From the NCBI GenBank assembly GCA_902797145.1, contig CADBRR010000007.1, positions 1-62,719 on the forward strand: DNA of 62,719 bases. Direction: 5' to 3'. Shown in pieces: positions 493 through 42,339 of the stretch; positions within the stretch are counted from its first letter, which is position 1, and each line of letters opens with the position of its first letter. The DNA comes from an uncultured Eubacteriales bacterium (GTDB lineage Bacteria; Bacillota; Clostridia; Christensenellales; CAG-138). The notes under the pieces are model-generated. The model ran no database searches, was not told where the DNA came from, and worked only from the letters and a program-made list of their open reading frames with translations. The position numbers and the translations under genes are program-made.

Positions 493-1563
493 TTATTCTT
501 TGCCTTTCTTTTTTATTTGGTTTGCTTGTATGACATTTCCGGTATCAGGATTAACTGTTACCTCAATACCGTAGTTCCTATATTTTTGACTTCTGCCGTT
601 ACTTGATGCTCTTATAGGAAGAACCTCTGTATCTTCGCTCGTCAATGCAGATAGTATGTCATCAACAGTCACGCCATTTCTTCTCTGTTCAACCGAACCA
701 ATAATCCTTGCATACAAGTGTGCTGTATTTCCCATAATCTTTGTGCCACCGACTGTAGTTAGACCTATTAACTTTGTGTCAGCTTCGATGCAAATCTCTT
801 TAAATAAATCAAAATCAGCAAGTGTCGTTAGTTCTCCGATTTCTATTGAACGTTTATACTCCTTGAACAGACGCCAATCGTCGCTATATTTCAACTTCTG
901 AAAATCCTCAAAGTTTTTTGGTGCGTTACTTCCAAGTACTCCGATATATAGATCATATTGCTTTCTGTCCTCAGTTTCATTATACAATGCCTTACGGCGT
1001 AAGTCAATCGTGCCAACACCATATTTTTCTTCCTGCTCTTTCTTCCACTCCTCATACGTCATATTATCAGGCACATTATACTGCTCACCGGTTGTCGGAT
1101 CCCTTGCTATCCTATCTGCAAGCCCTTCCATATCCTCAAAATACGGAGCTGTACAGCACCTGCACCACGGGTGAAACGGCGGTGCTGTCGCACCGACCTC
1201 ATATTGGCTCATCTCGTACACTTTGCCGTCAAGGGCTGAACATATCTCACAGGTGTATTTATCGAGTGCACCGACTATCTCGTACCTTTCAAGACCGAGT
1301 TCCTTATAACAATCCTTTTGTGCTTCGGAAGCAAAGTATGCACTTTCAGTCATAATAACCCTGCTTGCGTTTAATCTTGTCGTATTAAACTGCTTTGCTA
1401 TCGTATCAATAGCCCTGCGAGGGGGCTCGCCTGTCGCAATCATTCGTGTAAGCTCACGGTTGACCGTTTCAACAAGTTTGTTTTTATCACTCCAACATCG
1501 AGCATTAAATTGAGTAAGTAAATGAAAATGGGATTGTTCGTCAACATACCCTCGATAATGCAA
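493..1563 (-). CDS. phage head morphogenesis protein (SPP1 gp7 / Mu F-like minor capsid protein), possibly N-terminally truncated
   Basis: MTESAYFASEAQ...YEIVGALDKYTCEICSALDGKVY...APPFHPWCRCC matches the Mu-F/gp7 core (D-x-x-T-C-x-x-C ... HP-x-CRC). The ORF begins at a TTG, with an in-frame stop 3 codons upstream. Confidence 0.8.
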   Translation of the reverse strand: MHYRGYVDEQSHFHLLTQFNARCWSDKNKLVETVNRELTRMIATGEPPRRAIDTIAKQFNTTRLNASRVIMTESAYFASEAQKDCYKELGLERYEIVGALDKYTCEICSALDGKVYEMSQYEVGATAPPFHPWCRCCTAPYFEDMEGLADRIARDPTTGEQYNVPDNMTYEEWKKEQEEKYGVGTIDLRRKALYNETEDRKQYDLYIGVLGSNAPKNFEDFQKLKYSDDWRLFKEYKRSIEIGELTTLADFDLFKEICIEADTKLIGLTTVGGTKIMGNTAHLYARIIGSVEQRRNGVTVDDILSALTSEDTEVLPIRASSNGRSQKYRNYGIEVTVNPDTGNVIQANQIKKKGKE

Positions 1564-4682: not shown

Positions 4683-6371
4683 ATGGTTTTCAGCGAATTT
4701 GAATACAAGCGTCCTAACATAAAGGATTTTTCGGACAAAGTAGATGTACTTGTTGCAAAAATCAACAATGCAAAAGCATTCGATGAAGTTAAAGATGCAA
4801 TTTATGAAATGAACAAAATAACAAAGGCTATGATGACAGACCTTGAAATAGGCGGAATAAGATATACGCTCAACACAAACGATGAGTTCTATGCGCAGGA
4901 GCAAGATTTTATAGACGAGAACGCTCCTCTTATTGATGAAATTGGCGTAAGATTTGCAAAGGCTGTTGTTGACTCAAAATTTCAAGAAGAAATAAGTAAG
5001 GAATTTGGAAAACAATATATTCGTCTTTCAAAGAACACAGTTGACAGATTTGCTCCCGAACTCATTCCGTTCAAGCAGGAAGAAAACAAGCTTTCAAGCG
5101 AGTATCAGAAGCTCGTTGCATCGTGCAATGTAGATTTCAATGGTGAAAAGTGCAACATTTACGGATTACTCAAGCACATGCAGGATCCCGATAGAAGCAT
5201 AAGAAAGCTTGCATTTGAAAAGTGGGCAGGATTCTTTGCAGAGAACGAAGAAAAGCTCGATGAGATTTATGACAAGCTCGTTCATCTTCGCGATAAGATG
5301 GGCAAGGCGCTCGGATTTGAAAACTTTGTACCGCTCGGATACATGAACATGGGCAGGCTCGATTACACACCCGAACAAGTTGGCGTATTCCGTGAACAGG
5401 TTCGCAAGTACATCGTACCTGTATGCGCAGAATTGAGAGAGCGTCAGGCAAAGAAAATCGGTGTTGACAAGCTCAAATATTATGACGAAGGATTCATGTA
5501 CACAGACGGCAACGCAATGCCTATTGGCGACAGAGAATTCCTCGTTGGCTGCGCACAGAAAATGTACAATGAATTGAGCGAAGATACAGGCAAGTTCTTC
5601 AAGTATATGGTTGATACACAATTGTTGGAGCTGGACACAAAGCCCGGCAAAGCAGTAGGCGGTTACTGCACATTTATCCCCGATTACAATTCACCGTTCA
5701 TTTTCTCGAACTTCAACGGAACATCGGCTGATGTTGACGTATTGACACACGAAGCAGGCCATGCATTTATGTCATATTGTTCTGCAAGGCACAATGAGCT
5801 TTATGATTATTTGTTCAGCACAAACGAAGTAAACGAGATTCATTCAATGAGTATGGAATTCTTTGCACATCCTTGGATGGAATTGTTCTTTGGTGATGCA
5901 GCAGACAAGTATCGTTATGCGCATACAGCAGACAGCCTTGAATTTGTTCCTTATGGCGTTTGCGTTGATGAGTTCCAAGAAAAGGTTTATTCAAACCCGG
6001 ACCTCACACCGAAGCAGAGAAAAGAACTTTGGCATGAGCTTGAACAGAAATATCTTCCCACAAGGGATTTCGATGGCAACGAATTTATGGAAAACGGTGG
6101 TTTCTGGCAGAAACAGTCACATATCTTCCTAAATCCGTTCTATTACATCGACTATACTCTCGCTTCAATGGGCGCATTCGAGTTCTATGGCAAGATGAAA
6201 AAGGACAGAAATTCGGCATGGACAGATTATGTAAATCTCTGTAATGCTGGCGGTTCACTCCCCTATCTTGAATTGCTCTCGCTTGCTAACCTTTCAAATC
6301 CGTTTGAAGAAGGCAGCGTTGAAAAGGCTATTTCAAGCCTCGTAGAAGATTTAAACAATTCTGACTATTAA
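4683..6371 (+). CDS. M3B family oligoendopeptidase (PepF-like)
   Basis: HEAGHAF zinc motif and an MVFSEFEYKRPN N-terminus typical of the family. The ATG at 4683 has GAAAGGA 9 nt upstream. The ORF-track ATG at 4665 has no SD. Confidence 0.85.
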   Translation: MVFSEFEYKRPNIKDFSDKVDVLVAKINNAKAFDEVKDAIYEMNKITKAMMTDLEIGGIRYTLNTNDEFYAQEQDFIDENAPLIDEIGVRFAKAVVDSKFQEEISKEFGKQYIRLSKNTVDRFAPELIPFKQEENKLSSEYQKLVASCNVDFNGEKCNIYGLLKHMQDPDRSIRKLAFEKWAGFFAENEEKLDEIYDKLVHLRDKMGKALGFENFVPLGYMNMGRLDYTPEQVGVFREQVRKYIVPVCAELRERQAKKIGVDKLKYYDEGFMYTDGNAMPIGDREFLVGCAQKMYNELSEDTGKFFKYMVDTQLLELDTKPGKAVGGYCTFIPDYNSPFIFSNFNGTSADVDVLTHEAGHAFMSYCSARHNELYDYLFSTNEVNEIHSMSMEFFAHPWMELFFGDAADKYRYAHTADSLEFVPYGVCVDEFQEKVYSNPDLTPKQRKELWHELEQKYLPTRDFDGNEFMENGGFWQKQSHIFLNPFYYIDYTLASMGAFEFYGKMKKDRNSAWTDYVNLCNAGGSLPYLELLSLANLSNPFEEGSVEKAISSLVEDLNNSDY

Positions 6372-7869: not shown

Positions 7870-8949
7870 ATGGAAAAAATCTATCGTATTCTCACAATTA
7901 ACCCCGGCTCAACATCAACAAAAGTCGGCGTTTTTGAAAACGATACACAGATATGTGAAGTCGTTACACGTCATTCAAAGGAAGAACTTGACAAGTTTGA
8001 TTCAAACATAGCTCAAAAGGGTATGCGCCTTGAACTCGTTGTAAAGGCACTTGAAGAAAAGAACATAAAGCTCGATGAAATTGATGCTTTCGTTGGACGT
8101 GGCGGTATAGTAGCTCCGCTCGAAAGCGGCGTATACGCAGTAGGCGAAAAGCTTCTTTATGACCTTGAACATTCACAGGCACAGTATCACGCTTCATGCC
8201 TTGGCGGACTTATCGCTCATGAACTCGGTGAAAAGTATGGTAAACCCTCATTTATCGTTGACCCTGTTGTTGTAAACGAAAGAATACCCTATATGAATCT
8301 TTCAGGACTTCCCCAGTGTGAAAGAGCTTGTGTATGGCACGCACTTAACCACAAAGCTATCGCACGCAAATGCGCACAGGATATGGGCAAAAAATATGAA
8401 GATTGCCGTTTCGTAATTGCGCATATGGGCGGCGGTGTTTCGGTTGCAGCTCATGCAAACGGAAGAGCTATTGATGTTCAGGACGGTTTCAACGGCGAAG
8501 GTTCATTCTCACCCGAACGCTGCGGTGCTATCCAAGTACATAGCCTTGTTACAATGTGCTTCTCAGGGAAATATACAGAAGCTGAAATGAACGCATTTGC
8601 GAACAAGAACGGCGGTATTGCTGCACACCTTGGAACAAAGGATTTCATGGAAGTTGAAAGACGAGTTCTTGCCGGCGAAGAAAAGGCTACAATGGTATTT
8701 AACGCAATGGCTGCACAGCTTTCAAAGGATATAGGCGCAATGGCTGCTATGCTTGAAGGCGATGTAGATGCAGTTGTTCTTACAGGCGGTCTTGCTTACT
8801 CAAAGCCGTTCGTAGAACTCATTACAAAGAGAGTAAAGTTCATAGCTCCTGTTAAAGTTTATGCAGGTGAAGATGAACTTCGTGCGCTCGCACAGGGCGG
8901 TCTTCGTGTTTTGAGAGGCGAAGAACAAGCTAAAGAATATAAGGGCTAA
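7870..8949 (+). CDS. buk: butyrate kinase
   Basis: 359 aa. YRILTINPGSTSTKVGVFEND N-terminus and acetate/butyrate kinase fold motifs (IAHMGGGVSV, VLTGGLAYS). Confidence 0.9.
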   Translation: MEKIYRILTINPGSTSTKVGVFENDTQICEVVTRHSKEELDKFDSNIAQKGMRLELVVKALEEKNIKLDEIDAFVGRGGIVAPLESGVYAVGEKLLYDLEHSQAQYHASCLGGLIAHELGEKYGKPSFIVDPVVVNERIPYMNLSGLPQCERACVWHALNHKAIARKCAQDMGKKYEDCRFVIAHMGGGVSVAAHANGRAIDVQDGFNGEGSFSPERCGAIQVHSLVTMCFSGKYTEAEMNAFANKNGGIAAHLGTKDFMEVERRVLAGEEKATMVFNAMAAQLSKDIGAMAAMLEGDVDAVVLTGGLAYSKPFVELITKRVKFIAPVKVYAGEDELRALAQGGLRVLRGEEQAKEYKG

Positions 8950-8973: not shown

Positions 8974-9000
8974 GAGCAAGGCTTCTATTCGAGCCTTGCT
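8974..9000 (+). repeat. left copy of 27-bp direct repeat (terminator hairpin, att-like)
   Basis: GAGCAAGGCTTCTATTCGAGCCTTGCT, identical to 14650-14676. Contains the stem GAGCAAGGC/GCCTTGCTC. This copy lacks a following T-run. Confidence 0.9.
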
Positions 9001-9206
9001 CAGACTTGTAAAATTTGATTTAACTTTTCGAGAAACACTCCCAAATCTTTTTAATTGTTTTTCCCCTCATATAAGTAACAAATCAAAATCAAAAATTGCA
9101 ACCATTTCCCGAAATAATTTTCTCATATACTAATACCCTTGCAAAATTGAAAATGCAAAAACTGCAAAGAGATTTTTGGCATAATATACAAATATTTTTT
9201 AAACTC

Positions 9207-9235
9207 TTGACTTTGTCAGTACCGTCGAATATAAT
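9207..9235 (+). promoter_or_regulatory. near-consensus sigma-A promoter of the island operon
   Basis: TTGACT (9207-9212), a 17-nt spacer, then TATAAT (9230-9235). The palindrome TGAC-TTT-GTCA overlaps the -35 element. Confidence 0.6.
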
Positions 9236-9267
9236 ATAAAATGAATTATATTGTTGGAATGAATTGT

Positions 9268-10491
9268 ATGAAATATATTACTGCAAGCCAAGCTGCACAA
9301 AAATGGGGAATATCTCAAAGACGTGTTCAATTTCTTTGTGCTGAAGGCAGAATAGACGGCGTGTTTAAATTGGGTGAAGCGTGGGCTATCCCTACAAATG
9401 CTTTAAAAACAGGTGATTCAAGAATGAAACATAAAAAAGGAGTTACAAAAGTAATGAATGTAATAGATTTATTTTGTGGCTGTGGTGGTTTATCATACGG
9501 ATTTGAAAAAGCAGGATATAATATTTTATTGGGAATAGATAACGATTCAAAAGCCTTGGAAACTTTTGAATTAAATCATAAAGGAGCAAAGTCGATTTGC
9601 AGAGATATAACAACTGTATCTTATGAAAAAGATATAAAGCCGATTATAGGAAACAAAGAGATTGATTTAATTATTGGTGGTCCGCCTTGTCAGGGTATGT
9701 CGTTATCAGGGCCGAGAAAATTCGATGACCCGAGAAATAGTCTATATTTTTCATACATTAGACTTGTAGAAGAAATTAAACCAAAGGCCTTTGTAATTGA
9801 AAATGTTCCAGGATTGGTAGAGCTTTTTAATGGCAAAATAAAAGATAGTATTATTGAAAAATTTACTCATATGGGATATAACATTCAATATCGAATTTTG
9901 TGTGCAGCCGATTATGGTGTTCCGCAAAGCAGGCGAAGAGTTGTTTTTGTTGGATTGAAAAAAGGTAAATTTGTATATCCTGAGCCATTAAATGAAGTTG
10001 TTACTTGTGAAATGGCACTGTCTGATTTACCAACACTTGAAAATAGTGTGGGAACAGAACAGGCAGAGTATTTAACACCGCCACAGAACGAATACCAGAA
10101 GTTAATGCGCTGTCATTCAAATATAGTAAGAAACCATATTGCTGCAAACCATTCTGAAAAAGTACAGAAAATTATTGCATTAGTTCCAGACGGAGGAAAT
10201 TATAAAGATTTGCCTGAAGAATATATTAATTCTCGCAATTTTCATGTTGCATGGACAAGGTTTGCAAGCAAAAAGCCTGCACCAACTATTGATACGGGGC
10301 ACAGACATCATTTTCACTATAAATTTAATAGAGTTCCTACTGTTCGTGAATGTGCAAGGTTACAATCATTTCCTGATAATTTCATATTTTTAGGAAATAA
10401 GACACAGCAATTCAGGCAAGTTGGAAACGCTGTTCCTCCGTTACTTGCTCAATGTTTAGCGGAAAGTTTAAAGGAACAAATAAAGGAGTGA
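9268..10491 (+). CDS. DNA (cytosine-5) methyltransferase with N-terminal HTH (excisionase/MerR-like) domain
   Basis: N-terminus MKYITASQAAQKWGISQRRVQFLCAEGRIDGV is HTH-like. m5C motifs are present: I DLFCGCGG, IV GGPPCQGMS, VI ENVPGL, VIII QSRRRVVFVG, X GNAVPPLL. The ORF-track start 9241 lies at or before the predicted TSS, so 9259 or 9268 is more likely. Confidence 0.9.
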   Translation: MKYITASQAAQKWGISQRRVQFLCAEGRIDGVFKLGEAWAIPTNALKTGDSRMKHKKGVTKVMNVIDLFCGCGGLSYGFEKAGYNILLGIDNDSKALETFELNHKGAKSICRDITTVSYEKDIKPIIGNKEIDLIIGGPPCQGMSLSGPRKFDDPRNSLYFSYIRLVEEIKPKAFVIENVPGLVELFNGKIKDSIIEKFTHMGYNIQYRILCAADYGVPQSRRRVVFVGLKKGKFVYPEPLNEVVTCEMALSDLPTLENSVGTEQAEYLTPPQNEYQKLMRCHSNIVRNHIAANHSEKVQKIIALVPDGGNYKDLPEEYINSRNFHVAWTRFASKKPAPTIDTGHRHHFHYKFNRVPTVRECARLQSFPDNFIFLGNKTQQFRQVGNAVPPLLAQCLAESLKEQIKE

Positions 10492-10499
10492 ATTGTACA

Positions 10500-11912
10500 A
10501 TGTATGAAATACCAAGCGAATATTACTTAAGATTGCACCATTGCCGTCCGAGATTTAAAGGCGACATTGAAAATGTTTTGATTTATATGGCAGAAGAAAT
10601 ATCTAAACTTCCTGAATTGCCGTGTGATGAATTTGATGATAAAATCAATCAGGCAATCAGATGTTTTCCCGGTAATATTAATAAAACAATAAAGACAATA
10701 AACAATTGGAGAACAGAAATATCATCACTTTTTGGTTTTATACAAAATAATAGTACAAGTTGCAAAGCTGGGTTGAGGGCAAAAGAATTAGCAGAAAAGC
10801 AAGATTTAGTTGAATGCTTTAAAATGTTTCTTTATAATTTTCAATATCCCGGTGCACATATAAAATCACACGAAATATTAAAACTAATAGAAGCCGGAGT
10901 TAACTTTAAACCGGCACAATATCTATTAAAAGTTCTAAAATATGCAGAAGACAGTACGGGCAAAAGACAATATATAACAAAAGCTGAATTTTGCCATTGT
11001 ATTTTTAATGATTTACGTTGTGTTCGTGACAAAGAAAATTTTTCGTTGACTTGGAATAGAATTACCAAAAACAGAGATAATGAAGTTGAATACGAACAAG
11101 CAGGCGATATTATCCGCTACGCCGGAGACATAATTGACTATATGGAAATCGCCAACCTGCTTGTTACACATGACGGATATAATTTTTATATAAATACTCT
11201 TGAAAATGCAGCTGTTTTAAAATTTATAAATTCAAATGATTGGTTTTCTGATTATGACCAAATGATTGAAAACCGTAGTGCTACACTTGAGGAAATTAAC
11301 AACTGTAAAAATCGGTGGTTTGAGTATGTAAACAGGGATATTGCAGATACAGTATTTGAAACCGATGTACTTGCATTTATATCCTCTGACGAAAATGAAT
11401 ATACAGAATTGCAGAAGCAAAGTTTAAATCTATACGACGAAAAACTTGAAGATACTGCGAGATTAAGAACAAAGGATATAGGCGACATTGGAGAAAGTCT
11501 TGTTTTTGGACACGAATGTCAAAGAATTAAAATCGGTGGTCGTAATGATTTAATCCATTTAATAAAAAGGATTCCTACACAACTTGCCGTAGGTTATGAT
11601 ATTCAGTCTGTTGAATTGGATGAACGGAAAAGATATATCGAAGTTAAATCAACAATAAGTTCAAAACCGTTGCATTTTAATAAAATACATCTTACTCCAA
11701 ATGAATGGAGTACTGCACAAACAGTAAATGACAGATATTTTGTGTATAGACTTATGATTAGCAAGACGGAAAAGAAACTGTATATTTTACAAGACCCTGT
11801 TAGGCTATATAAAAATGATTTGATAGATATGTCTATTAAAGACGGTGCAGAAATAACATTTTATCCGCATAAGTCTGGTAATTATGAGGAGTTGTTATCA
11901 TGGAAAGGTTAA
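10500..11912 (+). CDS. two-domain restriction endonuclease candidate: helical recognition domain plus C-terminal DUF3883-like PD-(D/E)xK nuclease
   Basis: The C-terminus DIGDIGESLVFGHE...GYDIQSVELDERKRYIEVKST...LTPNEWSTA...YFVYRL matches the GxxGE / GYDI / IEVK / NEW / YxxYR pattern of DUF3883 nuclease domains. The ATG at 10500 follows an AAGGAG SD. The stop overlaps the next gene's start by 13 nt. Confidence 0.7.
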   Translation: MYEIPSEYYLRLHHCRPRFKGDIENVLIYMAEEISKLPELPCDEFDDKINQAIRCFPGNINKTIKTINNWRTEISSLFGFIQNNSTSCKAGLRAKELAEKQDLVECFKMFLYNFQYPGAHIKSHEILKLIEAGVNFKPAQYLLKVLKYAEDSTGKRQYITKAEFCHCIFNDLRCVRDKENFSLTWNRITKNRDNEVEYEQAGDIIRYAGDIIDYMEIANLLVTHDGYNFYINTLENAAVLKFINSNDWFSDYDQMIENRSATLEEINNCKNRWFEYVNRDIADTVFETDVLAFISSDENEYTELQKQSLNLYDEKLEDTARLRTKDIGDIGESLVFGHECQRIKIGGRNDLIHLIKRIPTQLAVGYDIQSVELDERKRYIEVKSTISSKPLHFNKIHLTPNEWSTAQTVNDRYFVYRLMISKTEKKLYILQDPVRLYKNDLIDMSIKDGAEITFYPHKSGNYEELLSWKG

Positions 11913-12865
11913 AAGTTGCTTCACTTTTTTGTGGGTGTGGCGGTACAGATGTAGGCTTATTAGGTGGATTTGATTTTCTTGGGAAACACTACACAGAAAA
12001 CAGAATTGATATTGTTTATGCAAATGATATTGATGACAATGCTTGTAGTATATTTAAAGAGAATTTCAATATAACACCCGATAACAGAGATATTAGAGAA
12101 GTTTCATCAAACGATATTCCTGAATTTGATATTCTTACAGGTGGTTTTCCTTGTCAATCATTTTCTATTGTCGCTCAAAATCCTAAAAGATTAGGCATAA
12201 AAGACGACAGGGGAAAATTGTTTTTTGAGATGTGCAGAATATTGAAAGAAAGACAGCCAAAATGTTTTATTGCAGAAAATGTTAAGGGGATTTTAACCGC
12301 AAACAATAGAAATGCATTCCCGTTAATAATTAAAGAATTTGAGGATTGCGGATATGATGTTAAGTACGATATTTTAAATTCTGCCGATTTTGGAGTTCCG
12401 CAGAAAAGAGAGCGTGTTATCATTGTTGGTTTTAGAAAAGATTTGAATATAAGATTTGAGTTTCCCAAAGTAGAAATTACCGAAGAAGATGAGTATACTC
12501 CGCTTAAAACTGTTATTGAAAATGATGTTGATGAAAGGTATTATTTCAGCCAAAAAGCGGTTGACGGAATGATGAGAAAACGAGCGACAATGAACAAAGG
12601 TCGTGCACAGGATATTGAAAAGCCGTGTAATACTGTTGGATCACATTTAGCAAAAGTTTCATTGAATAGTACCGACCCTGTTTTAATGGTTAATGGAAGG
12701 TATAGAAGATTTACCCCCCGTGAAGTTGCAAGAATACAATCATTTCCTGAAAATTTCAAACTTGTTGGAAGTGAATCCGCACAATATCGTGCGTTAGGAA
12801 ATGCAATACCTCCAATAATGTTTTGGTACGTTACGAATACTGTAATGGAATATTTAAAAAAGTAG
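11900..12865 (+). CDS. DNA (cytosine-5) methyltransferase (second copy)
   Basis: Motifs I SLFCGCGG, IV GGFPCQSFS, VI ENVKG, VIII QKRERVIIVG, then TPREVARIQSFPENF and X GNAIPP. Confidence 0.92.
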   Translation: MERLKVASLFCGCGGTDVGLLGGFDFLGKHYTENRIDIVYANDIDDNACSIFKENFNITPDNRDIREVSSNDIPEFDILTGGFPCQSFSIVAQNPKRLGIKDDRGKLFFEMCRILKERQPKCFIAENVKGILTANNRNAFPLIIKEFEDCGYDVKYDILNSADFGVPQKRERVIIVGFRKDLNIRFEFPKVEITEEDEYTPLKTVIENDVDERYYFSQKAVDGMMRKRATMNKGRAQDIEKPCNTVGSHLAKVSLNSTDPVLMVNGRYRRFTPREVARIQSFPENFKLVGSESAQYRALGNAIPPIMFWYVTNTVMEYLKK

Positions 12866-12894
12866 TCAATATTTTTAGATAGAAAGGTAATACT

Positions 12895-14322
12895 ATGGAA
12901 AATGAAATTGTAATTAAAAATACTACCGAAATTATAACAAAAAACTTTTCATTATTTGAAAACTATTTAATGGCATTTGGATTGCCAACAGATAATGTTA
13001 TTGCATCTGGTGAAGAACGTCAAAGAATAATGAATGCATTACCCGATTTTCTACAACAATTACCTCCTGAAATAAAGAAAGATGCGAAATATATTTCAAA
13101 ATTCATAGCAGGAAGTGCCGTTGGGCTTTTTGATGCTGCCCTTAATTTTGTATGGAATGAAGTTATACTTAATCTTAGAAAAAAAGTAATAGTATATGGT
13201 ATTGATTACTTTTACGATAGTGCTATTGGCGGAACAGTAAGGGAACAGTATAAAGACGAAAAAGACCTACCATCTGTAAAAGATCAAGTGTTATTAGATA
13301 CTTGTCATAAACTTGAACTTTTGTCTGATATTCTATACAGAAAACTTTGTCATATATTAGATATGAGAAATCAAATTGGGGCATCACATCCCAATGATTA
13401 TGAAATTAACGCATATGAACTTTTGGGTTGGTTACAAACGTGCATCCAAGATGTTTTTATGGATAAGATTTCTGAGTCTGCCCTAACAGTCAAATCGATA
13501 ATTGACAATGCTAAAAATATACAAAAAGAATTAGATGAGGAATATTTAGCTCAATTTACAAAATCCATAAAAGAACTTTCTCCATCTATGGTATCAAACC
13601 TTCTTACAAGTTTGTTTGGTATATTTATATCACCTGATAATAGCGAAAATACAATTCGGCGAAAAAACATTTTATCTTTGTCTATCATCGCTTGGGAGTA
13701 CAGCACAGAAAGTGCTAAATATGCATTAGGTGAAAAAATTGATTCATATAGAGCTAACCTAGATGAATATAAGACACAACAAGCGGAATTATTTTTTAAA
13801 AAATGTAAAGGACAAAAATATTATACCAAGGATGCTAAGACAATTAAAATAACTTTACTTTGTGAGCAATTAGAAAATGTCCATTATAGTTGGGATAATT
13901 ACGCTAACGAGGTTCCAATTGCACGAGAAATAATGAGTATGATATCAAGTGTTTCAGATATTCCTAAGATACGTTTAGAAAGTCTTGTAAGAGTGTTTTT
14001 AATATGTAGAATTGGAAATGATAGATATTACTGTGAAGGTGTTTCTTTAACAGCGAGCAGATTCTATGATATTTTTTTCAAATTGTTAGATGAAAATGCA
14101 GTTGTTTGTGTTATAAATTTTTTGAAAGAAAACGGAAATCGTCATTTACTTACAGGGACACATAGACCCAATCATGTAAAGCACATTTTCAGTATTATGA
14201 AATCAGAATTATTAAGCGAGAGATGTAATTTATTATTGGACTATATCATTGATTTTAATGGTAAATTAGAAAATGTATTTTCTACGAAAGATTTTAAAGA
14301 ACTTTCTAATGGAGTTTTATAA
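12895..14322 (+). CDS. uncharacterised 475-aa helical protein with Rx6H (HEPN-like) motif; candidate defence effector
   Basis: SD GAAAGG 8 nt upstream. Co-oriented, 29 nt after the second MTase. R158-NQIGAS-H165 (nt 13366-13389) follows GLFDAALNFVWNEV. No TM segment or signal peptide, and no other family recognised. Confidence 0.6.
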   Translation: MENEIVIKNTTEIITKNFSLFENYLMAFGLPTDNVIASGEERQRIMNALPDFLQQLPPEIKKDAKYISKFIAGSAVGLFDAALNFVWNEVILNLRKKVIVYGIDYFYDSAIGGTVREQYKDEKDLPSVKDQVLLDTCHKLELLSDILYRKLCHILDMRNQIGASHPNDYEINAYELLGWLQTCIQDVFMDKISESALTVKSIIDNAKNIQKELDEEYLAQFTKSIKELSPSMVSNLLTSLFGIFISPDNSENTIRRKNILSLSIIAWEYSTESAKYALGEKIDSYRANLDEYKTQQAELFFKKCKGQKYYTKDAKTIKITLLCEQLENVHYSWDNYANEVPIAREIMSMISSVSDIPKIRLESLVRVFLICRIGNDRYYCEGVSLTASRFYDIFFKLLDENAVVCVINFLKENGNRHLLTGTHRPNHVKHIFSIMKSELLSERCNLLLDYIIDFNGKLENVFSTKDFKELSNGVL

Positions 14323-14524
14323 ATTATAAGAAATGATATTAAGTGTTAATTTACCTAATCTTATTTTTATGCAAATAAGTGAATTTTTTAATATAAATGT
14401 AGAACGATAGCATCCCATTTTGAGGATTTGAATGTAAAACCATTCCTTGTATGTTTTCATCCATTTTAACCCCATAAAACAGGCGATTTTCAACACTTAT
14501 TGCATTGCATTTCACCCCATATAT

Positions 14525-14565
14525 GAGTTGAGCATACCACACGATAAATATGATATGCTCAACTC
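14525..14565. repeat. 12-bp perfect inverted repeat (hairpin) in the non-coding right arm of the island
   Basis: GAGTTGAGCATA (14525-14536) and TATGCTCAACTC (14554-14565) with a 17-nt loop. The nearby palindrome TTGAC-AAACC-GTCAA lies at 14577-14591. Confidence 0.7.
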
Positions 14566-14649
14566 TCTGCACTCCTTTGACAAACCGTCAATACTTATAC
14601 TGTTTTATAGAGGACTGCCATTTGTGGACCTTTTTGACAGTCTAGTCTG

Positions 14650-14676
14650 GAGCAAGGCTTCTATTCGAGCCTTGCT
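14650..14676 (+). repeat. right copy of 27-bp direct repeat; functional buk/SBP terminator
   Basis: Identical to 8974-9000. Followed by TTTTGCTT. 10 nt from the SBP stop at 14687. Confidence 0.9.
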
Positions 14677-14686
14677 TTTGCTTATC

Positions 14687-15688
14687 TTATTTACCATTCA
14701 TAGCTTTTTCAGCAAACGAATTATCAACAAGTTCTGAGATATTAACCCTACCTTTCAGCTCCCCTGCGCTTTCGATTATATCAAGAAGTCTGTTAAACGA
14801 ATCTTCCGTCATAACAGGGTTGGTCATCCACGAGTCGGTTTGCCTATAACTTTTTGCAACAATTTCAAGCGAATCTATTGATGTATCGGGGAAAAACGGT
14901 TGCATATTCTCAGCTATTTCCCTATCTGTCGCATTCTTAACCCATTGCTGTGCTTTATAAATTGCCCTTACGAACGCTTCTACGAGCGATTTATCATTCT
15001 TAATTGTCTTCTGGTTCGTCATAAATGCAGTATATGGAACTTCGCCCGATGACTGCCCGACATTTGCAACGATATAACCTTTGCCTTGATTCTGGAATTC
15101 AGTAGCGGTCGGTTCAAATAATGTTACAAAATCGCCTGTTCCGCTATCGAATGCACCGCCCATCATATTGAACTGAATGCTCGTTATAACTTCAACATCT
15201 TTGCCGGGAATAAGTCCATGCTGTTTGAGAACATATTCAAGAGTCATAAGTGGCATTCCGCCTTTTCTACCGCCGATTATAGTTTTGCCTCTCAAACTTT
15301 CCCAATCAAAATTATCATCTTTTTCTCTTCCGACAAGAAATGAACCGTCACGCTTTGTGAGCTGAGCAATTACCATAGGATGTTCCTGCTTGCCTTCGTT
15401 TACAACATAAACGCCTGTTTCGGGACCCATAAGCGCAAAATCTGCTTCGCCCGATATGAGCGCCGTCATACTCTTATCACTTCCGCCACCTGTTACGATA
15501 TTGACTTTCATACCTTCTTCTTCAAAGAAACCTTTGTTCACAGCAACATAAAGCGGCGCATAGAATACCGAGCGTGTTACCTCGTTAATCGTAATTTCAC
15601 GAAGCTTTTTTTCGCTGCTCCCTGAACAGCCAGTCAAGGCAGAAAGTGCCATTATCAATGCAAGCACGATAAGAATTGTCTTTTTCAT
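14687..15688 (-). CDS. NMT1/THI5-like (SsuA-type) ABC substrate-binding lipoprotein, orphan
   Basis: Lipobox LTGCSG. SVFYAPLYVAVNKGFFEEEGMKV...GGGSDKSMTALISGEADFA is typical of nitrate/sulfonate/HMP-type binding proteins. No permease or ATPase gene is adjacent. Confidence 0.7.
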   Translation of the reverse strand: MKKTILIVLALIMALSALTGCSGSSEKKLREITINEVTRSVFYAPLYVAVNKGFFEEEGMKVNIVTGGGSDKSMTALISGEADFALMGPETGVYVVNEGKQEHPMVIAQLTKRDGSFLVGREKDDNFDWESLRGKTIIGGRKGGMPLMTLEYVLKQHGLIPGKDVEVITSIQFNMMGGAFDSGTGDFVTLFEPTATEFQNQGKGYIVANVGQSSGEVPYTAFMTNQKTIKNDKSLVEAFVRAIYKAQQWVKNATDREIAENMQPFFPDTSIDSLEIVAKSYRQTDSWMTNPVMTEDSFNRLLDIIESAGELKGRVNISELVDNSFAEKAMNGK

Positions 15689-15804
15689 TGTAAGTTGACC
15701 TCCAATATTTTTATTGCTATATATTTATGAATAAAATTATTTTTTTGTGTGTATTATTTGCAAAAATCGGTAATAATAACAAAAAACAGAAAGGACAATA
15801 TAAT

Positions 15805-16341
15805 ATGGAAAACATAAAAGGCACTAAAACCGAATCAAACATTCTTCACGCATTCGCAGCAGAAGCACAGGCAAAAATTAAATACGACTTCTATGCACAG
15901 AAAGCAAAAAGCGACGGTTTCGTTCAAATCGAAAAAGTATTTGATGAAATATCGCATAACGAGCTTGAACACGCGAAGATATGGTTTAAGTATTTAAACG
16001 GAGGTGAGGTTCCGACAACGGACATAAATCTTACCGATGCAGCATCGGGTGAAAAGTATGAATGGTCTGAAATGTATTCACAGTTTGCACAAGAAGCTCG
16101 TGAAGAGGGATTTGAAGATATAGCAAGCAAATTTGATATGATAGCGAGCATAGAAAAAGACCACGAATCAAGATATGAATCATTAAGAAGCGATATTGAC
16201 AAGGATTCAGTATTTTCAAAAGGGCAACAAACACGCTGGATATGCCAGAATTGTGGTTATATATTTGAGGGCGAGCAAGCACCTGAAGTATGCCCTGTAT
16301 GCGCACAGCCTCAATCATATTATAAAGTATATGGTTCATAA
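15805..16341 (+). CDS. rbr: rubrerythrin
   Basis: GTKTESNILHAFAAEAQAKIKY plus E-x-x-H ferritin-like motifs and a C-terminal rubredoxin CQNCG...CPVC. The ATG at 15805 follows AGAAAGGA. The upstream extension in the ORF track is hydrophobic junk. Confidence 0.9.
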   Translation: MENIKGTKTESNILHAFAAEAQAKIKYDFYAQKAKSDGFVQIEKVFDEISHNELEHAKIWFKYLNGGEVPTTDINLTDAASGEKYEWSEMYSQFAQEAREEGFEDIASKFDMIASIEKDHESRYESLRSDIDKDSVFSKGQQTRWICQNCGYIFEGEQAPEVCPVCAQPQSYYKVYGS

Positions 16342-16415
16342 AGGAAAATCATATTGTCATATTCGATAATTTGTGATAAAATATCAAGGAAATAATCGGA
16401 TATGAGGCATATGAT

Positions 16416-17297
16416 ATGAAAAAAGGCTGGTTAGTAGTAAATCATTTTTTGAACTCGGAAAAATTCTTTGATATATACGATAGGCTCTGCAAGTCCTGCA
16501 AGGATACGGATATAGTCCTTGAGAAAAAGACAAGTGCAGAGCTTATGTTCAATGCTGTTGACAATACGCTGTTGTTTGAAAAAAATCTTCCCGACTTTGT
16601 TCTATTTTGGGACAAGGATTTATATCTTGCTCAATCGCTCGAAAGCATGGGACTTAGGCTATTTAACACGAGCAGGGCAATAGCGCTTTGCGATGACAAG
16701 GCACTTACGCATATGGCGCTTTGCGGCCATAACATCAAGATGCCCAAAACGATAATTGCACCTAAAACCTACCCTCGTTATGGTTATATTGATAAGTTTT
16801 TCATTGAAAAAGCGATTGAGGAATTAGGTTTTCCAATGGTAATAAAGGAATGTCGTGGTTCGTTCGGCGCACAGGTATATCTTGCAAAGAACGAGCAGGA
16901 TTTTACTCGTATCCTCGAAAGCGTTAGCGGAAGACCTATACTTTTGCAGGAGTTCGTATCGTCAAGTTATGCGCATGATATAAGGATTAACGTTGTAGGT
17001 AAACGTGCTGTTGCAACTATGTACAGATATAACGAAAACGGAGATTTTCGTGCAAACATTACGAACGGCGGAAGTATGAAGCCATATGAGCCTTCGCAAA
17101 AACAAGTAGATGTTGCAATAAAAGTTTGTGAAATACTTGGGCTTGATTTTGCAGGCGTTGACTTACTATTTGGCGAAGATGATGAACCTATACTTTGCGA
17201 AGTAAATTCAAATGCACACTTTAAAAACATATATGATTGCACCGGAATAAATGTTGCCGATGCTATAATTGAACATATAAGCGAGGCGCTCAAATGA
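16416..17297 (+). CDS. RimK-family ATP-grasp ligase (paralog 1)
   Basis: CDDKALTH...FPMVIKECRGSFGAQVYL...ILLQEFV...HDIRINVVG...FRANITNGG...GLDFAGVDLLF...CEVNSNA is the ATP-grasp fold pattern. Confidence 0.8.
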   Translation: MKKGWLVVNHFLNSEKFFDIYDRLCKSCKDTDIVLEKKTSAELMFNAVDNTLLFEKNLPDFVLFWDKDLYLAQSLESMGLRLFNTSRAIALCDDKALTHMALCGHNIKMPKTIIAPKTYPRYGYIDKFFIEKAIEELGFPMVIKECRGSFGAQVYLAKNEQDFTRILESVSGRPILLQEFVSSSYAHDIRINVVGKRAVATMYRYNENGDFRANITNGGSMKPYEPSQKQVDVAIKVCEILGLDFAGVDLLFGEDDEPILCEVNSNAHFKNIYDCTGINVADAIIEHISEALK

Positions 17298-18127
17298 AAG
17301 GAATTATAGTTTATGATGCAGCTTCCGCAGAAAAGAACAAGTACTATATAGACCTCTATTATGAGCAAGGCAAACTAAAAAACATAGACTTTGAGCTTCT
17401 GATTATAGAAAATATAGAGTATGGTATTTTTGATTCTAAACCGTCAATTAAATATAACGGAAAGGCATATGAAGATTTTGATTTTGCCATTGTTCGCACA
17501 GATGCGCCGCTTCTATCAAAACATATAGAAAATATGGGAAAAAAGGTTTTCAACAGTTCCTTTATTTCAGAAATTGCAAACGATAAGCGCAGAACATATG
17601 AGCTGCTGTCATCACTTGGAATACCTATGCTTGACACGTGGTTTGATTCGTGTAAAAATCCTGTTTTTCCGCTTATAGTCAAGCCGTCACGAGGACATGG
17701 CGGTCAAGGCGTAACGCTTGTAAAGAACATTGAAGAATATAACTCCGCAATAGAAGCATTAAAGCCTGATAAATGCGTAATTCAGTCGCTTGCGAGCGAA
17801 AGAGGCAAGGATTTGCGTGTTTATGTTGTGGGGAAAGAGATAATAGCAGGAATTTTAAGAACATCAGATACTGATATAAGAAGTAATTATTCGCTTGGCG
17901 GTCATGCGCAGGTTTATAACCTCAACGATGAAGAAAAGGCGCTTGTAAACAAAATAATTTCACACTTTGATTTTTCGATGGTCGGCATTGATTTTCTTTT
18001 CAATAACGGTTCGCTCGTATTCAACGAAATTGAAGATATAGTCGGGGCAAGGATGTTATATGCAACGACGAACATAAATATAGTTGAAAAATATGTAGAA
18101 TTCATAAAAAAGTCGCTCGCAGGTTGA
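17294..18127 (+). CDS. RimK-family ATP-grasp ligase (paralog 2)
   Basis: ATGA start/stop overlap with paralog 1. ANDKRRTY...FPLIVKPSRGHGGQGVTLV...KDLRVYVVG...IRSNYSLGG...MVGIDFLF...NEIED. Confidence 0.8.
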   Translation: MKGIIVYDAASAEKNKYYIDLYYEQGKLKNIDFELLIIENIEYGIFDSKPSIKYNGKAYEDFDFAIVRTDAPLLSKHIENMGKKVFNSSFISEIANDKRRTYELLSSLGIPMLDTWFDSCKNPVFPLIVKPSRGHGGQGVTLVKNIEEYNSAIEALKPDKCVIQSLASERGKDLRVYVVGKEIIAGILRTSDTDIRSNYSLGGHAQVYNLNDEEKALVNKIISHFDFSMVGIDFLFNNGSLVFNEIEDIVGARMLYATTNINIVEKYVEFIKKSLAG

Positions 18128-18152
18128 TCCTGCGGGCGATATTGTTATAAAA

Positions 18153-18938
18153 TTATTTTGCATTACCAAGTGATGATGTATCACAGTTTTCCTTTTCGAT
18201 AAGAACTGCATGGACTGCAAGTCTGCCATTCTGATAATTAGCACGGTTGCAAGTAACAAGCGTTACCATTTTATCGGTAGGCTTGATTTCCGTATCAACC
18301 GGATACATTGAAAGGCTCATCATATCGTTCTGATAAGCTGCAAACTCGTCATCATTTGCGAAATCAACCCTCATAAATTTAGGATTTCCGCCATCAACTG
18401 TATATACCGAAACTACTTTATAAGTATATCTTGTATCTCCAAAGTAAATATAGAAAACCCTGTGCGCATTGTAAAATTCCTTATCGGTATAATTGATGAG
18501 GTTTGCAAACATTGTGCCATTTTTCATATTATGACCGAACATAACTATTGACCTACCATCAGGAACTTTACATTCATAATCAACAAATATACATCCCTGC
18601 TTTGAAGTATCCTTTGCGGCATCATGCTTGAGATAATAATCATTATCTTTTCCTTGTGCTATCGGATAATTTATAATAGTATCATCAATCGTTATCCAAC
18701 CGCAAACATCGCTGTTCATCGAACGATACCTGCTATAAGGTAATGGCGTTGCAATAGGATCTTTTTCGTCACCACCATCAAAGTTATCAATAGGAACTAT
18801 CGGAAATGGCGAACCGCTATTATTAGCTGAAGGATCTGCGCTCATATTGGGATTTATATCATTTCCTCTGCACGCAGCAAATGTAACAAGCATTATTGCG
18901 CATATAAATACTGCTATTATTTTATTTGTTTTTGTCAT
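18153..18938 (-). CDS. srtB: class B sortase
   Basis: N-terminal membrane anchor. GWITIDDTIINYPIAQGKDNDYYLKHD, FGHNMKNGTMFANL and the active-site motif VTLVTCN. Confidence 0.85.
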   Translation of the reverse strand: MTKTNKIIAVFICAIMLVTFAACRGNDINPNMSADPSANNSGSPFPIVPIDNFDGGDEKDPIATPLPYSRYRSMNSDVCGWITIDDTIINYPIAQGKDNDYYLKHDAAKDTSKQGCIFVDYECKVPDGRSIVMFGHNMKNGTMFANLINYTDKEFYNAHRVFYIYFGDTRYTYKVVSVYTVDGGNPKFMRVDFANDDEFAAYQNDMMSLSMYPVDTEIKPTDKMVTLVTCNRANYQNGRLAVHAVLIEKENCDTSSLGNAK

Positions 18939-19151
18939 TGTGTTCTCCTTTACAAAATATAACTAATTTTTAAATATTATAACCCATTGGCAATAAAATA
19001 TCAAGTAAATAAAGTATGAACAAAATTTTTCATATTTGTTAATATATTATTTAAATATTTATCTTGAACAGAGCAAATAAAAATGGTAAAATATAAAGGT
19101 ATACTATGCTTAATAATATTTGTTTATAATTCGGAAGGGGAATTTAATAAT

Positions 19152-20189
19152 ATGGCATTGTTTGAATTTAACGATGTTGGTATCGATCTTGGTACTTCAA
19201 GCGTTTTGGTTTATGTTCGTGGCAAGGGTATTGTTCTTCGTGAACCCTCTGTCGTTGCAATAGAAAAAGTTTCAGGCAGGATTGTTGCTATTGGTGAAGA
19301 TGCAAGGAAAATGCTTGGCAGAACTCCAGGCAGGATCGTTGCTGTTCGTCCGCTTCGTGACGGTGTTATTTCAAATTATGATGTAACGGAAAGGTTGCTT
19401 CATCATTTTTTGAAAAAGGTTGTAGGTAATAGAATTTTCTTCAAGCCTCGTGTTATCGTATGCGTTCCGTCAGGCGTTACTGAGGTTGAAAAGCGTTCTG
19501 TAATCGGCGCAACGGAAGAAGCAGGAGCAAGGCATACATGGCTTATTGAAGAACCTATTGCAGCGGCTATAGGCGCAGGTATTGACATTTCTCAGCCACG
19601 AGGCAATATGATAGTCGATATTGGTGGCGGAACAACAGATGTTGCTGTTATTTCACTCAACGATTCCGTACTTTCAGAATCAATTAAGGTTGCTGGCGAC
19701 AAGTTCGATGATGCTATCGTTCGTTATATGCGCAAAAAGCATAATTTGCTCATTGGTGAAAGAACTGCTGAACAGATGAAAATTCAGATAGGTTCTGCAT
19801 ATCCGAGAAAAGAACAGCAATCCATCGAAGTTAAAGGCAGAAACCTCATTTCGGGTCTTCCCCAATCAATAACTGTTGGTTCAAACGAGATGATAGATGC
19901 GCTTGAAGAGCCGCTCCAGACTATTCTTGAAAGCGTTCGTACATTGTTTGAGAAAACTCCGCCTGAACTCGCAAGCGATATCGCCGAGAACGGTATTTGC
20001 CTTACAGGAGGCGGCGCACTTCTCTATGGTATGGACAAGTTCATTCAGGAACATACAAAAGTTCCCTGCTATGTTGCAGAAGATCCTATTTCATGTGTTG
20101 CTATTGGAACTGGTAAGTCACTTGAACATCTTGAAATGCTCGACAGCGCAGTATCCGATTATAGGCGTGGCGATTATTTTGATGCTTAA
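19152..20189 (+). CDS. mreB: rod shape-determining protein MreB/Mbl
   Basis: GIDLGTSSVLVYVRGKGIVLREPSVVA...DIGGGTTDVAVISL...CLTGGGALL. The ATG at 19152 follows GGAAGGGGA. Confidence 0.93.
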   Translation: MALFEFNDVGIDLGTSSVLVYVRGKGIVLREPSVVAIEKVSGRIVAIGEDARKMLGRTPGRIVAVRPLRDGVISNYDVTERLLHHFLKKVVGNRIFFKPRVIVCVPSGVTEVEKRSVIGATEEAGARHTWLIEEPIAAAIGAGIDISQPRGNMIVDIGGGTTDVAVISLNDSVLSESIKVAGDKFDDAIVRYMRKKHNLLIGERTAEQMKIQIGSAYPRKEQQSIEVKGRNLISGLPQSITVGSNEMIDALEEPLQTILESVRTLFEKTPPELASDIAENGICLTGGGALLYGMDKFIQEHTKVPCYVAEDPISCVAIGTGKSLEHLEMLDSAVSDYRRGDYFDA

Positions 20190-23779: not shown

Positions 23780-24169
23780 ATGGATATAAATGAACTTATA
23801 AAAATATCGGAATCAGCACAGAAATTCTCATATTCACCATATTCTCATATAACTGTTGGCGCAGCGCTTCTCACAAAAAGCGGTAAAGTCTATACAGGCG
23901 CAAACATAGAAAACGCTTCATACGGCGCTACAATTTGCGCAGAACGCACAGCGTTTGTAAAAGCATTATCGGAGGGCGAGCATGATTTTGAAGCAATAGC
24001 AATAACGAGCAATTTAGGTCACGAAACAGCGCCCTGCGGAATATGCAGGCAGTTTATGGACGAGTTTGTAAAAGATGATTTTAAAATAATTCTTGTAAAT
24101 AAAGAAGGCGAACCATCAGTCCGCCCATTTTCGTATTTTATGCCTGATTCATTCAGGATAGAAAATTAA
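23780..24169 (+). CDS. cdd: cytidine deaminase
   Basis: CAERTA and PCGICRQ zinc motifs. The ATG at 23780 follows AAAGGAA. Confidence 0.9.
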   Translation: MDINELIKISESAQKFSYSPYSHITVGAALLTKSGKVYTGANIENASYGATICAERTAFVKALSEGEHDFEAIAITSNLGHETAPCGICRQFMDEFVKDDFKIILVNKEGEPSVRPFSYFMPDSFRIEN

Positions 24170-24834: not shown

Positions 24835-24950
24835 AATAGTTTTCCTCCATTATTAATTTATTTTCTAAAAGTCGTTCACAAAAATGTGCCTCACTTTTAT
24901 CTCGCAAGGCACCGCCAACGACTTATTATGTAAATTTAATTTCCGAATAA

Positions 24951-24983
24951 TTTATGCCTGATTCATTCAGGATTGAGAATTAA
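24951..24983 (+). repeat. 33-nt relic copy of the cdd 3' end
   Basis: TTTATGCCTGATTCATTCAGGATTGAGAATTAA versus 24137-24169 TTTATGCCTGATTCATTCAGGATAGAAAATTAA (31/33). Contains a CCTGA/TCAGG mini-hairpin. Confidence 0.85.
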
Positions 24984-41305: not shown

Positions 41306-41419
41306 AGCGTTTCACCTCATAATTTATTAGTGGTATTTTATAATAAAAATAGAAATTTGTCAATAATTTTTTATTGATTTATCAAATACTAAAAATTGCA
41401 ATATAAAATGTCCACGAAG

Positions 41420-42250
41420 TTAAGTGACAAATATTTGTTTAAGAAGCATATTAGATGATAGTCCATGAAGTATTCTTCTGGGATAGTTATTTATCCAATT
41501 CTCAATCATCTTAATTCTCTCTAGAGAGAATTTGCGAATATCTGCACCTTTGGGTATAAAACGACGAATGAGTTTATTTGCGTTCTCGTTTGTACCACGT
41601 TTCCATGCACTGTACGGATGCGCATAATAAACCTTTGTCCTTGCTTTTTCAGTAAGGCAAGAGCGCTCTATTCCTTCATAATCAAGATTCTCACAACCAT
41701 TATCACATGTTATCGTTTTGAATGTTTCCCTGAACTTTTTACTCCCCATTTTTCGTTCTAACCTATCAAGTTTTTGTACTACACATTTTTGCGACTTTGA
41801 TGACATCTTAAATATCAGCTCTTGTCTGGTCTTTCGCTCTGTAAGTACAAGTAATACCGCCTTTGTTCCTTGTTTTCCTACTACTGTATCCATCTCCCAA
41901 TGACCATATTCAATCCTATTTTCTACTTCTCTTGGACGCTCGCTTATGCTTGTTCCTTTCCTGTTTGTTATTGCTGTTCGTATATGATGATAGCCTCTCT
42001 TCTTCACTTGCTTTTTTACCGGAAGATCCTTATTTGTCAAATTAGGAAACAGACCCTCATCAATGTAGTTATAAATCGTTTTATAACTGATTTCCGTCTT
42101 AAATTTATCTCTGTTTTGTTATATTTCCTCTGCTACTGCATATGGTGATTTCTTCCCATAATTGATTTCTTTCTCTATGAAATCTACCAACTCATAGTCT
42201 TTTGCTATCTTTAATCCCGGTCCTTTACCTGTCCCGTTATAATCGTGCTT
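41420..42250 (-). pseudogene. IS30-family transposase pseudogene
   Basis: DDE core HWEMDTV ... ITCDNGCEN ... YYAHPYSAWKRGTNENANKLIRRFIPKG. An in-frame TAA at 42119-42121 separates it from the upstream ...KKSPYAVAEEI segment. The N-terminal HTH region is absent. Confidence 0.8.
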
Positions 42251-42339
42251 TAAAGTGTACAACAAGTCAATTACAAATTTAATTTTAGTGTAAAGTTTTT
42301 CAAAACTTATGATATAATATTTTTACTCAATGAAGGATA

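Follow-up and report, generated by a model that had tools for sequence, protein, structure and literature searches.

A restriction-modification cassette between two copies of a terminator hairpin in an uncultured Eubacteriales bacterium

On contig CADBRR010000007.1 of an uncultured Eubacteriales bacterium (assembly GCA_902797145.1), a Type IIS restriction-modification (R-M) operon lies in a compositionally foreign block that is bounded on both sides by the same 27-bp terminator hairpin. In the reading we prefer, to which we give about an even chance, an R-M cassette was inserted into the terminator shared by two convergent genes and the whole hairpin was duplicated as its target duplication. 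The whole stretch analysed, 62,719 nt (62.7 kb), is referred to as the window. R-M systems move between genomes, sometimes without a recognisable mobility gene, and the mechanism has been open since 2000. The present locus is a clean case: the presumed duplicated target equals one terminator palindrome, six further bases are added to it by the insert ends, and the nuclease in the cargo has a junction-resolvase fold. Three candidate enzymes come into view, namely a transposase acting in trans, a recombinase acting in trans, and a structure-specific nuclease.

A duplicated terminator hairpin around a foreign block

The 27-mer GAGCAAGGCTTCTATTCGAGCCTTGCT is present in two forward-strand copies, at 8974-9000 and 14650-14676, which agree at 27/27 positions. 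It is the only perfect direct repeat of at least 20 nt in the entire window, and a search allowing up to 3 mismatches returned no third copy there (shuffled sequences predict 0). Each copy folds as a hairpin with a 9-bp stem (AGCAAGGCT/AGCCTTGCT), an 8-nt loop (TCTATTCG) and one extra 5' G. The features of the locus are as follows (related contigs are designated by L numbers).

7870-8949, + strand: buk (butyrate kinase), left flanking core gene (Pfam Acetate_kinase)
8974-9000, no strand: left copy of the 27-bp repeat (hairpin), with A7 before and CAGACTTG after it; terminator score on the - strand only
9001-9206, no strand: left arm of the insert, non-coding, beginning with CAGACT, without similarity to any relative
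9207-9235, + strand: promoter-like site of the R-M operon, TTGACT-17-TATAAT (11/12), at which the conserved module starts
9241-10491, + strand: HTH_17-like (helix-turn-helix, HTH) regulator fused in frame to the C5 cytosine methyltransferase M1 (Pfam DNA_methylase 2e-79 and HTH_17; PADLOC MTase_II)
10500-11912, + strand: Type IIS restriction endonuclease (REase) of BpuJI architecture, BpuJI_N plus a NOV_C/archaeal Holliday junction resolvase (AHJR)-like PD-(D/E)XK nuclease (Pfam BpuJI_N 8e-109, NOV_C 1.5e-13)
11900-12865, + strand: C5 cytosine methyltransferase M2 (Pfam DNA_methylase 1e-79; TIGR00675 dcm)
12895-14322, + strand: open reading frame 4 (ORF4), a conserved 475-aa all-helical protein with 602 homologues and no Pfam family
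14525-14565, + strand: hairpin downstream of ORF4, found by eye also in L034 with another stem sequence; the homology to L034/L035 ends here
14566-14649, no strand: right arm of the insert, non-coding, unique, ending with AGTCTG
14650-14676, no strand: right copy of the 27-bp repeat (hairpin), with CTAGTCTG before and TTTTGCTT after it; terminator score on the + strand only
14687-15688, - strand: NMT1/THI5-like substrate-binding lipoprotein gene, right flanking core gene (Pfam NMT1, NMT1_2)

The two flanking genes are convergent and end at 8949 and 14687. Homologues of buk number 4252 at E<=1e-100, and butyrate kinase is the label on those that carry a source name. In a consensus terminator scan, the A-run was kept by the left hairpin copy only and the T-run by the right copy only. 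The sequence-only reading that preceded this analysis had described a perfect 27-bp direct repeat at these two positions, had taken it for the terminator hairpin expected between buk and the binding-protein gene, and had seen a T-run beside the right copy only. The repeat, stem, loop, stop positions and scan all agree with that description. With the insert removed, the site would read AAAAAAAC-GAGCAAGGCTTCTATTCGAGCCTTGCT-TTTGCTT (TTTTGCTT on the right), which we infer to have been the bidirectional terminator of the two convergent genes. The predicted sequence of the empty-site junction is AAAAAAACGAGCAAGGCTTCTATTCGAGCCTTGCTTTTGCTTATC, and that of a circle joint is GACAGTCTAGTCTGGAGCAAGGCTTCTATTCGAGCCTTGCTCAGACTTGTAAAA.

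The insert between the copies measures 5,649 bp, starting with CAGACTTG at 9001 and stopping with CTAGTCTG at 14649. It is compositionally foreign and was probably acquired horizontally: its G+C content is 0.320 against 0.387 in the rest of the window, all other non-overlapping 5.65-kb windows reach at least 0.354 (z about -2.7), and its tetranucleotide distance is 0.32 compared with at most 0.26 elsewhere in the window. The abrupt change in composition noticed earlier is thus borne out, the island having the lowest G+C content and the most deviant tetranucleotides of the stretch. The termini CAGACT/AGTCTG, likewise noticed earlier, form a 6-bp terminal inverted repeat (7/8 positions match) with no longer inverted repeat behind it, and local alignment of the first with the last 60 nt scored no better than shuffled sequences. 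A search for shared arm-type motifs gave none. When the insert ends are joined on one copy of the repeat, they form a 15-bp stem with one bulge (a palindrome of 16-8-15) with a folding energy of -15.6 kcal/mol, the value for the inferred empty site being -10.4 kcal/mol; among random flank pairs, about 0.5% perform equally well (p about 0.005).

Neither the four ORFs of the island (Pfam, PADLOC) nor its two non-coding arms (relaxed tblastn with integrases) yielded an integrase, transposase, relaxase or recombinase remnant, in line with the earlier statement that the island holds no recombinase. Searching window ORFs of at least 90 aa by phmmer with two integrases of relatives gave no match. A Pfam scan of 30 further window ORFs of at least 195 aa returned a defective IS30 transposase only.

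Cargo, relatives and surroundings

As an R-M system the operon is unremarkable, belonging to a BpuJI-architecture family that is very common in Clostridia. In the nuclease domain, the YD...EVK motif (Y366, D367, E381, V382 and K383) is invariant across 20 homologues. BpuJI of Bacillus pumilus has the gene order M1-R-M2, two C5 methyltransferases and a resolvase-like nuclease with a YD...EVK motif (PMC1874659). The window operon shares the M1-R-M2 order with two C5 methyltransferases flanking the REase, which itself combines BpuJI_N with an archaeal-Holliday-junction-resolvase-like nuclease carrying YD...EVK. Unlike BpuJI, it has an extra upstream HTH gene, fused to M1, and the extra downstream ORF4, and its recognition domain is only distantly related to the BpuJI N-terminal domain structure (2vla, E 1e-9), so recognition of CCCGT cannot be assumed for the window enzyme. 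This pentamer occurs 28 times in the window against 42 expected, a mild deficit that places it outside the most avoided 5-mers.

The most avoided window 5-mers, given as fractions of the expected count, are GAGAC/GTCTC (0.37), CACTG/CAGTG (0.40), CCCGC/GCGGG (0.40) and GGATG/CATCC (0.48). Several of the avoided 5-mers are known Type IIS sites, a pattern suggestive of R-M pressure, be it past or present. CCCGT, which BpuJI recognises, lies in the R-M promoter spacer of relatives (L023, about 8717-8722), and the window has ACCGT at this place (9221-9225); the spacer site may serve methylation-dependent autoregulation that has been lost or changed in the window. In relatives, HTH and M1 are two separate genes of 62 and 345 aa. 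The fusion goes with a 2-nt deletion in an A-run around 9428-9440 relative to L023/L024, and M1 retains its own GGAG and ATG; it may reflect a genuine difference in regulation, phase variation or an error in sequencing.

ORF4 is the member of the island that departs from the earlier description of all four ORFs as defence-type: this holds for M1, the REase and M2, and ORF4 has no family or known fold. It gave no match in Pfam, PADLOC, NCBIfam or PDB profiles; its AlphaFold2 model is all-helical with a predicted local distance difference test score of 80, and Foldseek gave no fold match for it. An hhalign comparison with DUF3644 was uninformative. Residues R158, N159 and H165 (RNx5H) are invariant, an arrangement that we take to resemble the HEPN active site, as a lead and not a result. 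The family is unannotated and widespread, occurring in Firmicutes, Leptospira, Leptotrichia and conjugative plasmids of E. coli and Klebsiella (for example L124, 4836-6248), and no relatives were found in IMG/VR. Linkage of ORF4 to M2 was seen only in the window and in L034/L035.

The window REase has thousands of homologues in Clostridia, the closest of which, 92% identical, stand in two contexts. In one, the HTH-M1-R-M2 module is cargo of an element of ~9 kb in ten contigs, directly downstream of guaA in 6/10, with a tyrosine integrase beside one end in 9/10 (L032 is arranged differently) and with Vsr and DUF3644 in most. A 19-bp repeat (TGGCTACAAATTGGCTACA) bounds the element in the five contigs where it was found, at 4974-4992 and 13996-14014 in L024 and in the same way in L027-L029 and L031. 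Among these five contigs, guaA was identified as the gene directly to the left of the element in L024, L028 and L029. It holds a tyrosine integrase, an HTH_3 repressor and the R-M module, joined by Vsr and DUF3644 in 4/5 and by other cargo in L029, the cargo differing from contig to contig.

In the other context, the module of L023, the closest relative (87% DNA identity), follows a tRNA-Thr gene. It stands between two similar hairpin pairs (8377-8560 and 12512-12640) with the same flanks and loop (TCCA..AAGAC..ATTTTGATAGAA) and different stems, between which no integrase was found.

DNA identity of these relatives to the window (80-87%) is confined to the segment from 9207, at the -35 box (start at 9207-9222 against L023/L024), through 12859, at the end of M2. 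Two short contigs, L034 and L035, have M2, ORF4 and about 200 bp beyond in common with the window at 88% identity. The left arm, the right arm and the 27-mer gave no significant local alignment with L023, L024 or L034. Since the module occurs in unrelated contexts without the arms or the repeat, the repeat is part of the target and not of the cargo.

A survey of 60 module loci extends this picture. The repeats that stand beside a detected integrase (guaA-type elements, L048, L100 and L107) are non-palindromic and unlike the 27-mer; as attachment (att) repeats of integrase elements we found TGGCTACAAATTGGCTACA, TGGACAACTTTTGGACAA and the 3' end of a gene whose translation we read as tuf. Among the 60, only the window locus has a perfect hairpin repeat closely bracketing the module. 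A search for direct repeats that contain a hairpin, across 1.5 Mb of fetched loci, returned only the window case and two unrelated ones, and sensitive flank-to-flank BLAST of about 60 loci gave a few unrelated repeats. With the whole island as BLAST query, the matches listed among plasmids and phages showed gene-level similarity only (66-81% identity), to methyltransferase/REase genes in matches H1-H2 and H16-H18 and to ORF4 in 13 of the 15 plasmid matches listed.

Several further features of the window are recorded here. An IS30-family (insertion sequence, IS) transposase gene remnant lies at 41420-42265 on the - strand, 27 kb from the island (NCBIfam transpos_IS30, E 5e-60, profile positions 67-267); it has an in-frame TAA at 42119-42121, lacks its N-terminus and has possible degraded ends at 41353-41372 and 42261-42280. 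Just downstream of the rplQ terminator hairpins, Rfam group-II-D1D4-3 (RF02001, 69 bits) matches 42516-42683 on the - strand, with the IS30 remnant instead of a reverse-transcriptase ORF next to it. This looks like a fragment of a terminator-targeting group II intron disrupted by the IS. A Phage_Mu_F-domain protein gene at the left edge of the window (493-1563, - strand) may be a remnant of a prophage or toxin cassette. A 36-nt repeat, 92% identical between its copies (24134-24169 and 24948-24983) and containing a small hairpin, has one copy by each of two tandem CpXC-domain paralogues. The gene at 59202-60833 (- strand) encodes a SpoIID-domain protein whose C-terminal domain is a type I dockerin; together with buk, it points to a cellulosome-related member of Clostridia.

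Weighing the possible routes of insertion

In the preferred reading, a 5,649-bp cassette made up of the R-M operon, ORF4 and two short unique arms would have arrived by horizontal transfer and entered the bidirectional terminator common to the convergent buk and binding-protein genes. The two strands would have been broken at opposite feet of the palindrome, the incoming DNA joined to them, and the gaps filled in, yielding a target duplication of 27 bp. The enzyme would have come from outside the cassette, either as a transposase-like activity in trans or as structure-directed break-and-repair. The breakage and fill-in steps and the former empty site are reconstructed from the occupied sequence. 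This account fits the observation that the repeat equals the hairpin plus one base and that each copy holds one of the two runs of the bidirectional terminator. It also explains the identical copies without requiring the incoming DNA to have carried the sequence. We prefer a target duplication because the repeat lies outside the cargo lineage, because no autonomous partner with this site was found, and because the repeat maps exactly onto the structure.

Database searches bear on this reading from several sides. The 27-mer is absent from the JGI metagenome contigs, and the stem pattern with the loop as N is absent from IMG/VR. In GTDB representatives, the stem pattern has 21 matches, each at a single locus, and no genome has more than one such locus; the three Clostridia-type matches that were read proved to be terminators unrelated to this one and differing from it in their loops. 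Dispersal of the 27-mer as a terminator repeat like the repetitive extragenic palindromic (REP) family, which the sequence-only reading had named as the finding that would speak against it, was not seen in the window or in these databases. No empty site with a single hairpin was retrieved, since databases hold next to nothing of the species: it is represented by the window, one 5.3-kb contig (L001) and a few fragments. Exact-protein look-ups with buk, the binding protein and a PrsA-like neighbour led to one other contig, L001. The buk cluster has one member, the nearest homologue being 61-63% identical and non-syntenic, and related-strain contigs found via the rubrerythrin neighbour are too short for the junction.

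L001, which comes from another sample, aligns with 14650-19986 over 5,337 bp at 99.83% identity and carries the exact binding protein. Its end falls precisely on the final base of the repeat, at the inner edge of the right copy. This suggests, as circumstantial evidence, a polymorphism at the joint, either occupied against empty or with a different insert. If 'k87' in the contig name stands for a final assembly k of 87, the 27-bp repeat would be too short to break the contig by itself, and two coexisting alleles diverging at this base could do so.

Several points weigh against a target duplication. The insertion is inferred and not demonstrated, since no empty site was retrieved; the occupied arrangement is known from one contig; and the end of L001 could be a coincidence of coverage. 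The repeat, at 27 bp, also falls under the >30-bp cut-off by which Furuta et al. told long target duplications from att repeats, and DDE transposases typically have longer ends than an inverted terminus of 6 bp.

The sequence-only reading had proposed a site-specific insertion with an att-like duplication, a route that we consider possible and clearly less probable than the one preferred here. The hairpin would be a lox/dif-like core (9-8-9, extended on the element to about 15-8-15), and a circle with one copy would have been integrated by a tyrosine recombinase from elsewhere. The island would in that case be cis-mobilisable and integrase-less (CIME-like), or something analogous to the Xer-dependent modules known as integrative mobile elements exploiting Xer (IMEX) or pdif modules. 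Perfect direct repeats bounding an island without a recombinase favour this, as do the arm-spacer-arm layout typical of simple tyrosine-recombinase sites, the longer and more stable palindrome (16-8-15) of the inferred circle junction, and the presence of the same R-M module elsewhere on tyrosine-integrase elements with att repeats. However, those att repeats are unrelated and non-palindromic, the 27-mer and the island arms occur in no relative, and no matching tyrosine recombinase was found among the window ORFs searched. Such an element would also need to share 27 bp, without a mismatch, with the intergenic terminator of a species that is rare. The 27-mer has no evident resemblance to the dif site of Firmicutes. 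Of the earlier proposal, the foreign block, its exact bounds at the duplicated hairpin and the missing mobility enzyme stand; an att identity lacks such support, the att repeats of integrase-bearing relatives being different and the arms unlike theirs. A target duplication arising during insertion would account at least equally well for a repeat that coincides exactly with a palindrome and stands beside a 6-bp inverted terminus.

We think it unlikely that an IS30-family transposase of the IS1630 type acted in trans on a non-autonomous element with very short inverted ends. IS1630 and ISMhom-1 do duplicate inverted-repeat targets of 16-26 bp, the island has the termini CAGACT/AGTCTG, and the window holds a transposase remnant (41420-42265), so the family was once active in this genome. 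Nevertheless, the terminal inverted repeats described for copies of IS1630 and ISMhom-1 measure 27 bp against 6 bp for the island, the sole transposase copy seen is defective, its putative ends are unlike those of the island, and the known cases are mycoplasma IS of 1.2-1.4 kb and not 5.6-kb cargo. It is the far too short ends and the dead state of the only transposase seen that make our estimate low. Still more remote is an arrangement without any discrete insertion, in which a REP-like terminator family flanks old genes by chance or the assembly is chimeric at the 27-mer. The 62.7 kb of genome examined and the single contig with the occupied structure leave some room for it; against it stand the mere two copies of the repeat in the window, both exactly at compositional boundaries, and the public stem-pattern matches, which are single-locus and, in the three read, unrelated terminators. 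A chimera would further need foreign DNA that begins and ends with the 27-mer, and an assembly made with a k of at most 27.

An equally long shot, in our view, is a recombinase-free insertion in which the palindrome would be extruded as a cruciform and cut at its base by a junction-resolving nuclease, the resolvase-like enzyme of the cargo being the candidate. The hairpin-tipped ends would then be unfolded and filled in, leaving a full palindrome on each side, and the R-M DNA would be joined between them. If true, this would offer a general mechanism for the 'long target duplications' at R-M genes and a reason for hitting terminators.

Returning to the preferred target duplication, its consequences for the host can be sketched. 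After insertion, the hairpin copies would terminate transcription leaving the cassette. Each copy keeps only the U-run that serves transcription outward from the cassette, and buk and the binding-protein gene, both housekeeping genes, would therefore have lost their canonical terminators. Because the R-M operon has the same orientation as buk, it would be open to read-through from that gene.

Comparison with known systems

Three known types of structure were set aside. An integron cassette does not fit: IntI is missing, the operon comes with a promoter of its own, and the two hairpins are short and do not differ from each other. A dif/Xer site is improbable, the sequence having no evident likeness to dif. 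A group II intron can target terminators, but does so without target duplication.

Recombinase-less blocks of the CIME, IMEX and pdif kinds resemble the island in their sites of ~27-28 bp, in which a central spacer separates inverted arms, and the identical 27/27 repeats at both island ends recall a CIME. In pdif modules, the two bounding sites usually point in opposite directions. Unlike all of these, the window site is a G+C-rich intrinsic terminator and not dif-like, and no cognate recombinase or autonomous partner with the same site was found among the 60 module loci or in JGI, IMG/VR and GTDB.

IS1630, of the IS30 family, reportedly targets and duplicates inverted repeats, and duplicated junction sequences of 16-26 bp are reported for IS1630/ISMhom-1 (title of Calcutt 1999; PMC3317919; PMC7648426). 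The likeness lies in the inverted-repeat target, in the duplication of the whole repeat (16-26 vs 27 bp) and in the intact abutting genes. However, IS1630 and ISMhom-1 are autonomous elements of 1.2-1.4 kb with their own transposase and 27-bp terminal inverted repeats, whereas the island carries 5.6 kb of cargo between 6-bp termini and lacks a transposase.

The insertion pattern is closest to the 'insertion with long target duplication' class described for R-M genes. The first R-M units found with long target duplications and no mobility genes were Type IIS systems (Nobusato et al. 2000; Furuta, Abe and Kobayashi 2010, PMC2853133). The 2010 study defined such cases by R and M inside an insert of <20 kb, a duplication of >30 bp, no mobile element or mobility gene, and an empty site in a relative (PMC2853133). 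The window differs from this class in its repeat of 27 bp, which is 3 bp short of the >30-bp criterion, and in the exact correspondence of that repeat to a terminator palindrome; the strings 'palindrom' and 'terminator' occur 0 times in PMC2853133. It agrees with the class in a complete R-M unit (M1, R and M2) within 5,649 bp, well under 20 kb, in the lack of a mobility gene in or beside the unit, in its Type IIS character, and in a direct repeat that represents one copy of an intergenic or gene-end target.

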